Numbered from the stretch's first letter, positions 61,810 to 64,000 are shown. The stretch is DNA of 64,000 bases from a virus (IMGVR_UViG_3300026116_000035); one strand, 5' to 3'. Notes: generated by a model not told the origin, from the sequence alone. A program made the numbers and translations.

Positions 61810-62640
61810 ATGTATTCAGCTAAAATATTAAAAGATTCATTAGCAGCTTCAGGGGCACGTCTTACAACTATGGAAATTACTTTTCCTAGAATTGTATTAC
61901 CGGAATTAAATACTCATAGAATTTGTAGTAGAAATTCAGCTTCATCAAGAGCTATACCTAGTGAAAAAATAATTAAACGTGTAATGCAAGACCCATTTTT
62001 ACCAGTTTATTGGGGTAAAAATAAAAAAGGAATGTCAGCCGAATCTGAATTAAGCATTTCTGAACAATTTGAAGCTAATTTAATATGGATAGAAGCTAGA
62101 AATAATGCAGTAGATTCAGTCAGAAAGTTATTGAAACTAGGCGTCCATAAGCAAATAGCTAATAGATTATTGGAACCATTTATATGGCAAACCGTAATTA
62201 TTTCGGCAACTAGTTGGGATAATTTTTTTAATTTACGTTGTCATCCAGACGCACAGCCAGAAATTAGAAAAATAGCCTTAATGATGCGTGATTTATATTA
62301 TTCATGCATACCTAATTCTGATTTGTCTAAAACATTTAATTGGCATCTGCCATTACTTGATGATGAAGAATTTAATGAATTGATAAAAATATATTCATTA
62401 GATGATATTATTAAAATTTCTGTAGGAAGATGTGCTAGAGTTTCTTATTTAACTCATGACGGAATTAGAGACCCTCAAGCGGATATTGAATTAACAAATA
62501 GATTATTAGCTTCTGGACATATGAGTCCTAGTGAACATATTGCTTTAGGAATGTCCGATATGAAGGTTAGTGGTAATTTTGTTGGATGGCAACAATTTAG
62601 AAAAACACTACCAAATGAAAATATATTTGTGAGTAACTAA
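61810..62640 (+). CDS. thyX: FAD-dependent thymidylate synthase
   Basis: ELNTHRICSRNSASSRAIP (ThyX motif), HKQIANRLLEP, LRCHPDAQPEI, RCARVSY, HMSPSEH. Confidence 0.9.
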   Translation: MYSAKILKDSLAASGARLTTMEITFPRIVLPELNTHRICSRNSASSRAIPSEKIIKRVMQDPFLPVYWGKNKKGMSAESELSISEQFEANLIWIEARNNAVDSVRKLLKLGVHKQIANRLLEPFIWQTVIISATSWDNFFNLRCHPDAQPEIRKIALMMRDLYYSCIPNSDLSKTFNWHLPLLDDEEFNELIKIYSLDDIIKISVGRCARVSYLTHDGIRDPQADIELTNRLLASGHMSPSEHIALGMSDMKVSGNFVGWQQFRKTLPNENIFVSN

Positions 62641-62811
62641 ATGAATAAAAATAAAATAATTGAGCTAATTGAAGAAAATGGTATTTTAATTACTGGTATG
62701 CCGATTTGGGATACAGAAAAAGATCAAAATGATACTATTAATAGTGTAGCAGATTTCGCTTTGAAAATGTATAACTTAGGATTAAATGAAAGAAAAAAAT
62801 ATGTCAAATAA
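62641..62811 (+). CDS. 56-aa hypothetical protein (MNKNKIIELIEENG...NERKKYVK)
   Basis: Manually translated; the ATG immediately follows the thyX stop. Confidence 0.5.
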   Translation: MNKNKIIELIEENGILITGMPIWDTEKDQNDTINSVADFALKMYNLGLNERKKYVK

Positions 62812-63028
62812 AAATGAAGATGTTGTCTCAGAATTAGAAAACAAGTATAACTCTATTAAAGAATTAGTTCATGAATTTAATAAGTTAGCTCAAAATAATA
62901 AACTACCAACACGAGTAGGTTGTGTTATAAACGAAAATGATAAAGATAATGAAGATGAAGAATATGATTATTGTGAAGAATTAGGATTTTCCTATGAAGG
63001 TTGGCAGCCTTCATCAATATCATGCTGA
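62786..63028 (+). CDS. acidic small protein ending GWQPSSISC (WxPSSxC family, copy 1)
   Basis: IKELVHEFNKLAQ core plus the terminal motif shared with the next three genes. Confidence 0.75.
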   Translation: MKEKNMSNKNEDVVSELENKYNSIKELVHEFNKLAQNNKLPTRVGCVINENDKDNEDEEYDYCEELGFSYEGWQPSSISC

Positions 63029-63050
63029 TTTTTAATTACAGGTAAATGGT

Positions 63051-63428
63051 ATGCTAAAAATAGATGATAAAATTCTTAAAGTAAAAGAAACAATAGATAA
63101 ATTAAATAAAGATTATGAACGATTAATTGCTGAAAAAGCTTTAGAGATAGAAAAAGAAAAAGAGAAACTACGTGCTCTAAGAACTCCACAGCAACTTGAA
63201 TTAAGTGATATTCGTAATAATATTAAAGATTTAGTTGATAAATACAATGACATTGCTCAAAATTCGGCCTATGATACAAAAGTAGCTTTATTTACTTACA
63301 ATGGTCAAAATATCTATGTTTTAGATGAATATGGTGAAAATGAATACAAAGAATATTTCCCCGAGTATGATAATATTAATAAACATCCTAATTATCAGCA
63401 TTGGTATCCAAGTTCTACAGATTGTTAA
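63051..63428 (+). CDS. WxPSSxC family protein, copy 2 (ends HWYPSSTDC)
   Basis: IKDLVDKYNDIAQ core; N-terminal coiled coil. Confidence 0.75.
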   Translation: MLKIDDKILKVKETIDKLNKDYERLIAEKALEIEKEKEKLRALRTPQQLELSDIRNNIKDLVDKYNDIAQNSAYDTKVALFTYNGQNIYVLDEYGENEYKEYFPEYDNINKHPNYQHWYPSSTDC

Positions 63429-63451
63429 TTTAAATTAGAAAGAAATATAAA

Positions 63452-63724
63452 ATGGATCAAGAAAAACGATATGAAGACATTGCTAAGTTAATTAAAGAAT
63501 ATAATGAATTTGCAATAAGTAAAAACTCTAATGTTCGATTAGGTATAGCTTCATCTAGATTATATAGAGATGATGATGATCATGATGATGATGAAAATCA
63601 GGATAATAAAGTTTTAACTCATGAAGAATTTATAAAAGAAATTGGTTATTATGATAATAATACTAGCATTTCTATTCATGCATTTGGTACAGATGCTGGT
63701 TGGTTTCCCAGCAGTATTTGTTAA
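63452..63724 (+). CDS. WxPSSxC family protein, copy 3 (ends GWFPSSIC)
   Basis: IAKLIKEYNEFA core; poly-Asp linker. Confidence 0.75.
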   Translation: MDQEKRYEDIAKLIKEYNEFAISKNSNVRLGIASSRLYRDDDDHDDDENQDNKVLTHEEFIKEIGYYDNNTSISIHAFGTDAGWFPSSIC

Positions 63725-63729
63725 ACACT

Positions 63730-64000
63730 ATGGTAAACAAACCTTGGAATTGTGATTTTACTGAAGCTCAAATTCAAAAAGAAATTGACGCTAAATTAAA
63801 ATTAATTGATTTAGAATCTAAAATTAAAGAATTATTTTCTCAATATAATGAAATTGTAAAAGAAAATAATCTTAGTCCATATATTATTTATACCACAGTA
63901 AATTATTTAAATAGTGAATTAAGTCCAGATAGTTGTAATGATATGGATACTATTCTTAAAATATATAATGAAAATAATGGTTGGTACGCAAGTTCTTGGT
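63730..64000 (+). CDS. WxPSSxC family protein, copy 4, truncated by the window end (MVNKPWNC...GWYASSW)
   Basis: Manually translated open frame to the window edge; IKELFSQYNEIVK core and GWYASSW, next base T (compatible with a Cys codon). Confidence 0.7.
   Translation, partial: MVNKPWNCDFTEAQIQKEIDAKLKLIDLESKIKELFSQYNEIVKENNLSPYIIYTTVNYLNSELSPDSCNDMDTILKIYNENNGWYASSW

Follow-up and report, generated by a model that had tools for sequence, protein, structure and literature searches.

Tandem small phage proteins with a common C-terminal tail form a virus-only module with a predicted MenT1-like nucleotidyltransferase

Introduction

Several proteins with a nucleotidyltransferase fold modify other proteins, among them MntA, which acts on HepT, as well as GlnE, GlnD and DrrA. 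They place a nucleoside monophosphate (NMP) on a hydroxyl group in a cognate or co-encoded protein, the target being a Tyr in a folded partner. In the MenA1-MenT1 pair (Rv0078B/Rv0078A), the gene for a small protein directly precedes that for a bi-lobed nucleotidyltransferase, and MenA1 is a short antitoxin whose helix blocks the active sites of MenT1, with a Trp inserted (PMC10435456). Here we describe a viral locus that likewise places small-protein genes just upstream of a nucleotidyltransferase gene. It was found at the end of a 64,000-nucleotide stretch of DNA from a virus (IMGVR_UViG_3300026116_000035), which we refer to as the window, where four consecutive genes encode small acidic proteins that share a C-terminal tail. 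Together they supply the small proteins of a conserved two-gene module that is restricted to viruses; its other half encodes a protein with DUF7277 and DUF7275 domains.

Both partners are annotated merely as hypothetical proteins or domains of unknown function (DUFs), including in phages of Escherichia coli (JS98-type Dhakavirus and Phapecoctavirus). The family PHROG 899 has the same C-terminal block as the window proteins, and its entry gives no function and does not mention a linkage to an enzyme. We found no paper on the DUF7275/DUF7277 enzyme or on the PHROG 899 small proteins. A survey of jumbo phages names RlaP and further nucleotidyltransferases without mentioning the pairing of this enzyme with small proteins (PMC7824862).

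Results

Four tandem genes share a helix and a C-terminal tail

The four genes are consecutive open reading frames (ORFs) on the + strand that run from 62786 to past 64000, with gaps of 5-23 bp between them. Their products are acidic proteins of 80-125 residues, with isoelectric points (pI) of 4.4-5.0 and net charges of -6 to -10. Paralogue 1 (62786-63028, 80 residues, pI 4.45) has GWQPSSISC at its carboxyl end, with the tail codons at 62999-63025. Paralogue 2 (P0001; 63051-63428, 125 residues), which has an additional coiled-coil-like N-terminal helix, terminates in HWYPSSTDC (63399-63425). Paralogue 3 (P0003; 63452-63724, 90 residues, net charge -10) terminates in GWFPSSIC (63698-63721), the window tail that is nearest to the family consensus. 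Paralogue 4 (63730-64000) is cut at the window edge, reading GWYASSW at base 64000. Its complete product was found in a protein collection as P0002 (95 residues, C-terminus GWYASSWCLDKD), where the Cys is followed by LDKD, and the end of the gene is expected near 64017.

All four proteins fit the pattern W-x-[P/A]-S-S-x(0-2)-C, placed at the C-terminus or within four residues of it. They have in common an N-terminal helix and the tail, with variable, Asp/Glu-rich linkers in between, and their alignment has six invariant columns (I24, L27, N32, W73, S76 and S77). This agrees with a sequence-only reading of the window, made beforehand, which had described four consecutive genes with a common helix, acidic linkers and a W-x-(P/A)-S-S tail. 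The same reading had the copies ending in Cys, with a question mark for the fourth at the window edge; the residue is indeed present in all four proteins, but in the fourth it is not C-terminal. The codons of the Ser-Ser pair vary among the copies (TCA TCA, AGT TCT, AGC AGT and AGT TCT in paralogues 1-4) and selection therefore acts on the protein rather than on the DNA.

The tail genes are linked to a DUF7277+DUF7275 gene

Arrays of one to six such small-protein genes lie directly 5' of, and on the same strand as, the gene for a DUF7277+DUF7275 protein of ~300 residues. We quantified this linkage in 80 IMG/VR loci that were retrieved via the enzyme, scanning their small ORFs for the pattern W-x(1-2)-S-x(1-4)-C-x(0-4)-end. 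Of the 899 same-strand ORFs in the 3 kb before the enzyme gene, 173 had the pattern, compared to 22 of the 5616 ORFs elsewhere (odds ratio 60, p 1e-128, a p-value that overstates independence as the loci are partly akin to each other). One to five upstream tail ORFs were present in 70 of the 80 loci. The pairing was replicated in all ten additional loci taken from collections of metagenome-assembled genomes (MAGs) and metagenomes, and it is also found in the cultured phages JS98, with five copies, and tuntematon, with three.

The small proteins stay with the enzyme gene when entire records are considered. We ran the family profile A4 over five whole records, namely the phages JS98 and tuntematon and three very large contigs from IMG/VR, and in four of them the matches were confined to the array beside the enzyme gene. 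The fifth, a 433-kb IMG/VR contig, had no A4 profile matches, though the regular expression had identified one upstream ORF there. Across Straboviridae, Stephanstirmvirinae, ~98 kb Pseudomonas phages and contigs of 266-433 kb, the pairing is kept while the other neighbours all change. Clustering of the larger neighbours in 81 loci revealed no family in more than ten loci besides the enzyme and the small proteins. A 228-residue protein encoded downstream of the enzyme in phage JS98 (orf120, L084:5263-5949) recurs in only six of the 81 loci and lies outside the conserved module.

The enzyme is present in 695 phage records, including T4-like, Phapecoctavirus, Acinetobacter, Aeromonas, Pseudomonas, Gordonia and Streptomyces phages, with hosts from Proteobacteria through Actinobacteria. 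Among 185,579 prokaryotic genomes, one per species, it was found on five contigs only; all five derive from MAGs and two measure 167 and 383 kb. The module is thus confined to viruses. No equivalent gene is annotated in the e-to-tRNA region of T4, which corresponds to the site of the module in JS98; the rest of T4 was not searched.

Two loci illustrate how the arrays end. In the nearest relative, the enzyme gene, with DUF7275, starts 14 bp past a gene of the paralogue 4 type (P0013). In locus L002, three family genes precede the enzyme gene and a fourth follows it, so the family can flank the enzyme gene on both sides. After this fourth member, which has 81 residues and ends in GWYSSGCSF, comes a 237-residue, Cys-rich DUF7227 protein (L002:11830-12800).

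The enzyme gene probably lies just beyond the window

A search with the DUF7277+DUF7275 protein retrieved 1572 relatives. The contig on record for one of these, P0145, has a length of 390,274 bp, like that of the window proteins, and we read the two as one contig. Similarly, every contig of at least 5 kb that carries the small family agrees in recorded size with a DUF7275-bearing contig, which we read as shared contigs. In the Logan assemblies of the sample from which the window derives, one contig stops within paralogue 4 and another begins 34 bp before P0145. From the synteny in relatives and the break between these two Logan contigs, P0145 is very probably located just beyond base 64017.

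These results bear on several further expectations of the sequence-only reading. It had proposed that the conserved terminus implies a common partner or modifying enzyme, for which comparative genomics now provides a candidate in the near-universally linked nucleotidyltransferase. It had seen no modifying enzyme in the window; the candidate P0145 probably lies just beyond, and a tblastn search with the enzyme found no copy inside. Its expectation that the array continues past the window gains little, as the nearest relative passes from the paralogue 4 type to the enzyme within 14 bp; only L002, with its one member after the enzyme, lends it any support.

P0145 is followed by a gene for 92 residues, a candidate fifth family member. 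The 10 kb after P0145 also encode a PolyA_pol enzyme of the CCA-adding type, an exonuclease resembling RNase T, a protein with a metallo-beta-lactamase fold, a kinase of the AAA_33/KTI12 type and a von Willebrand factor A (vWA) protein of the Ro60 type. Judging by these genes, the region looks like an RNA-end repair neighbourhood.

The enzyme is predicted to have a MenT1-like fold

To the enzyme we assign a class on the basis of its predicted structure. The AlphaFold2 (AF2) model of P0145 has a mean predicted local distance difference test score (pLDDT) of 94, and its best Foldseek matches were MenT1 alone and the MenA1-MenT1 complex (probability 1.0, E 6e-3). An exhaustive structural aligner ranked MenT1 first (Z 9.1 over 151 residues, root-mean-square deviation 4.2 A), before TglT/MenT3 (8.2), ANT(2'') (7.9), LnuA (7.6) and MenT4 (7.2). 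All of the eight highest-ranked entries were nucleotidyltransferases, including two putative ones, at moderate Z values. Within the enzyme family, G5, D26 and D28 never vary and S6 hardly does, forming a GS...DxD signature, and the DUF7275 lobe has further invariant His, Lys, Asp, Glu and Arg residues. A Pfam scan of the L002 enzyme to E 0.1 matched DUF7275 (1.3e-63) and DUF7277 (8.1e-14) only, AbiEii/DUF1814 being absent, and phmmer of the enzyme against PDB sequences found no MenT. The model thus predicts a MenT1/AbiEii-like nucleotidyltransferase fold with the catalytic GS...DxD intact, in a protein that is not DUF1814 by sequence.

P0145 is about neutral overall, with a positive C-terminal domain (+8.9). 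The predicted complex of P0145 with paralogue 3 had a score of 0.00, which counts neither for nor against binding. An enlarged version of the enzyme was seen on a 167,716-bp IMG/VR contig (L045:5365-6600), where it has 411 residues, with an added N-terminal domain of ~100 residues before the GS...DxD lobe; the tail genes are still upstream. Matches shortened as in this locus include 164-170-kb contigs, and Acinetobacter phages are among the cultured enzyme records.

The small proteins are a divergent branch of the PHROG 899 superfamily

We searched a profile of the four window proteins against 1.84 billion representative proteins at E-values up to 1e-3. This gave 45 matches, or 43 genuine relatives after two artefacts were removed. 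The two false positives, P0005 (1060 residues) and P0039 (296 residues), are repeat or coiled-coil proteins. The relatives have 65-130 residues and a layout consisting of a helix with K-Y-N-x-L-A, a short T-R-L-G-L strand, a variable and usually acidic loop, and the tail [G/A]-W-F-P-S-S-x(0-1)-C, which stands at the C-terminus or 1-4 residues short of the end. With these 43 relatives, and with only 0.4% of the small ORFs away from the arrays (22/5616) matching the scanned pattern, the tail is not a chance pattern.

Across the family the motif can be written as W-x-x-S-x(1-3)-C. In 200 non-identical members, Ser is found at W+3 in 194 and Cys is the final residue in 171; this regularity is partly due to the regular expression with which the members were collected, although that expression would equally have accepted Ser at W+2 and as many as four residues after the Cys. 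The distance from Trp to Cys varies in the same set, being seven residues in 126 members, six in 29 and five in 39. Two copies of the motif are present in 17 proteins, and the tail Cys is the sole Cys in 103 of 201 members.

The window paralogues share only 17-30% identity with one another, and each has closer relatives in other phages. Paralogue 1 is nearest to P0007 (57% identity) and P0021 (52%), and paralogue 2 forms an ortholog group with P0008, P0006 and P0012 (33-40%). The orthologs of paralogues 3 and 4 are P0016 (52%) and P0013 (44%), the latter ending in SSWCLNRD. As each paralogue is closer to these orthologs than to the other copies in its own array, the duplications are old and each copy has been kept. 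The copies were thus retained as distinct proteins and not merely for dosage.

A direct hmmscan related the window proteins to PHROG 899. Paralogue 2 matched at E 6.1e-5, with an alignment reaching the last profile position (221 of 221), and paralogue 1 at E 6.8e-3, while paralogues 3 and 4 had no match. T4-like members match the same profile at E 1e-23 to 1e-9. When the window branch was aligned to the T4-like 'YGMGG' members of PHROG 899 with hhalign, the probability was 96.4% (E 1.3e-9). By profile comparison the window proteins are distant members of the PHROG 899 superfamily, and their array is a new divergent branch of a widespread module. Unlike T4-like PHROG 899 proteins, this branch has long Asp/Glu loops in place of the 'YGMGG.Y' segment, as well as the helix motif KYN.LA. 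Other searches were negative: Pfam had no family for the four window proteins or ten diverse relatives, the INPHARED phages gave no megablast or tblastn match to the window genes, and IMG/VR returned nothing from a search with the four-protein alignment or with one exact 33-mer.

The small proteins have a median pI of 4.4 and a median net charge of -8.5. An AF2 model of paralogue 3 (m569e189453a5, based on a 44-sequence alignment) reached a pLDDT of 82.4 and shows a small alpha/beta body, with a helix at residues 3-23, a strand at 32-37, a second helix at 57-64 and a second strand at 71-76, after which the tail follows as coil outside the fold. Fold searches with this model (Foldseek against PDB and BFVD, ESM Atlas by shape, and VIA-align wide) gave nothing above noise, the best Z being 3.8. 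A language-model atlas search with the small protein returned only sub-threshold, unrelated glycosidase clusters. In general, superfamily members are acidic and about 60-130 residues long, and their N-terminal helix and short strand are followed by a variable, often Asp/Glu-rich loop and an exposed tail.

Genomic context of the array in the window

Upstream of the array are thyX (61810-62640) and a 56-residue ORF on the + strand (62641-62811) that overlaps the start of paralogue 1. This ORF lacks the tail and is outside the family; it was also called as a gene on a Logan contig from the same sample, and it probably shares a transcription unit with the array. The true start of paralogue 1 is likely the ATG at 62801, since its homologue P0007 starts with MSNQ. 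Promoter-like sites between 61000 and 64000 were no more frequent than in shuffled sequences. A terminator-like hairpin of six pairs, followed by a T-rich stretch, is present at 63694-63713 within the AGWFPSS codons of paralogue 3. Since the remaining copies encode this stretch with different codons, the hairpin is probably a coincidence.

A variant of the start of the array was found on an ENA contig (L001:1-561) that is 94% identical to window positions 62476-62970. There, a one-base deletion joins the 56-residue ORF to paralogue 1. From about 62970 this contig is abruptly unlike the window, and the tail-coding end is replaced, which could reflect either genuine variation or a short contig that is chimeric.

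Discussion

From the linkage and the class of the enzyme we infer that the tail and the enzyme act together in some way, a reading to which we assign a probability of about 0.55. The tail may serve as a handle by which diverged protein bodies meet one enzyme, its short sequence entering the active-site cleft. We favour a relation between enzyme and substrate because the tail is short, exposed, rich in nucleophiles, flexibly spaced and sometimes duplicated, and because the bodies have diverged yet are individually conserved. The small proteins would then be acceptors, and the enzyme would move an NMP onto the Ser at W+3, or onto the terminal Cys or its carboxylate. Several acidic cargo proteins could in this manner be switched by a single enzyme during host takeover, with many tagged substrates for one enzyme. 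Taken by itself, the proposal that the small proteins are nucleotidylylation substrates is tentative, and we consider it possible at less than even odds. It is unlikely, though conceivable, that the resulting nucleotide conjugates act on host targets, for instance as mimics of nucleic acids or tRNA ends against defence or translation factors.

The working analogy for such a mechanism is NMP transfer by MntA on HepT and by GlnE, GlnD and DrrA, to which our results show no relationship in sequence or specific fold. Whereas those enzymes modify Tyr in folded partners, the acceptor proposed here would be a Ser or Cys in a C-terminal tail carried by many paralogues. A number of observations weigh against this substrate reading. 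That the enzyme binds or modifies the tail is something we infer rather than observe, and the conserved gene order can mean co-regulation and not physical contact. Ten of the 80 loci have no detectable upstream tail gene, some of them being truncated or having the gene elsewhere. The enzyme gene itself is outside the window, its adjacency to the array being based on synteny in relatives and two Logan contigs broken at the junction. Genes for RNA-end functions occur within 10 kb after P0145 (Logan contig, SRR5509277, gene list only), and the nearest solved relatives of the enzyme, MenT1, MenT3 and MenT4, act on tRNA 3' ends and not on proteins (PMC10435456).

Several other explanations would account for part of these data. 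The small proteins could be regulators similar to MenA1, that is, acidic pseudo-substrates or plugs that are themselves unmodified and whose helix and tail fill the positive cleft of a host-toxic, tRNA-modifying enzyme in order to restrain or time it. The order of a small gene upstream and an enzyme gene downstream is that of MenAT and AbiE modules, the best structural match of the enzyme is MenT1, and the helix block and inserted Trp of MenA1 set a precedent (PMC10435456). Strongly acidic small proteins facing the positive C-terminal domain of the enzyme (+8.9 in P0145) would fit this as well, and members with two motifs could bridge two protomers as MenA1 does. Yet MenAT and AbiE have one antitoxin, whereas an array of the phage module can comprise as many as six diverged small genes, and a single enzyme would not need three to six old paralogues with 17-30% identity and an ortholog group each. 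Moreover, MenAT and AbiE are chromosomal, while the virus-only distribution of the phage module (five MAG contigs among 185,579 species genomes) means that it is no chromosomal addiction module. The enzyme has Pfam matches to DUF7275 and DUF7277 only, not to AbiEii/DUF1814, and the fixed C-terminal W-x-x-S-x(1-3)-C is a feature of the phage module that is not described for MenA proteins in PMC10435456. We regard regulation of this kind as rather improbable. Independence of the two partners, which we consider doubtful, would mean that their linkage is regulatory or historical only: the enzyme repairs or edits RNA ends alone, and the small proteins are takeover or anti-defence effectors whose tail docks a host factor. 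The acidic C-terminal tip of single-stranded DNA-binding protein (SSB-Ct) is such a hub tail that docks partners, and the acidic linker and short conserved tip of the small proteins recall it. Small acidic phage proteins are often nucleic-acid mimics, and fast-evolving bodies in arrays are typical for arsenal genes. The RNA-end genes after P0145 on the window contig point in the same direction, as does the action of the nearest solved enzymes on tRNA (PMC10435456). What independence leaves unexplained is why the pairing persists in very different phage lineages while every other neighbour changes, and why no family members were found away from the array in four whole genomes. With hosts from Proteobacteria to Actinobacteria, a single host docking site would also need to be universally conserved.

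Two chemical roles for the tail itself appear much less probable. The sequence-only reading had suggested leader-plus-core precursors of ribosomally synthesised and post-translationally modified peptides (RiPPs), with Ser and the terminal Cys forming aminovinyl-cysteine (AviCys)-type rings, or else a lipid or conjugation tag. AviCys formation uses Ser and a C-terminal Cys, both of which are available here, and small diversified gene arrays beside one enzyme follow a RiPP-like logic. This proposal is unsupported on several counts, and we consider it the most improbable of all: no flavin decarboxylase, dehydratase, cyclase, radical-SAM (S-adenosylmethionine) enzyme, protease or transporter/exporter is conserved near the arrays in 81 loci; the bodies are predicted to fold (pLDDT 82); no signal peptide is present and the surroundings are early-type intracellular genes. 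In addition, the conserved tail and N-terminal helix with a variable middle are the reverse of a conserved leader and variable core. Alternatively, terminal Cys residues, contributed by several copies or by a partner, could form a shared metal site or mixed disulfide independently of the enzyme. The Cys is nearly invariant and, being the sole one in 103 of 201 members, would have to engage in intermolecular thiol chemistry. A metal-binding, redox or disulfide handle leaves the invariant Trp, the Ser at W+3 and the enzyme linkage unexplained, however, and would have to operate in a reducing cytoplasm, so we judge it very unlikely.

Joint action of tail and enzyme remains the reading that we prefer. 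A short invariant C-terminal tag on diverged proteins that is tied to a single enzyme is a testable hypothesis on how phages take over their hosts. If the enzyme modifies the tails or obeys them, it would represent a new protein-directed or protein-regulated branch of the MenT/AbiEii nucleotidyltransferases, and a block of 'dark' genes that is common in phages would gain a function.

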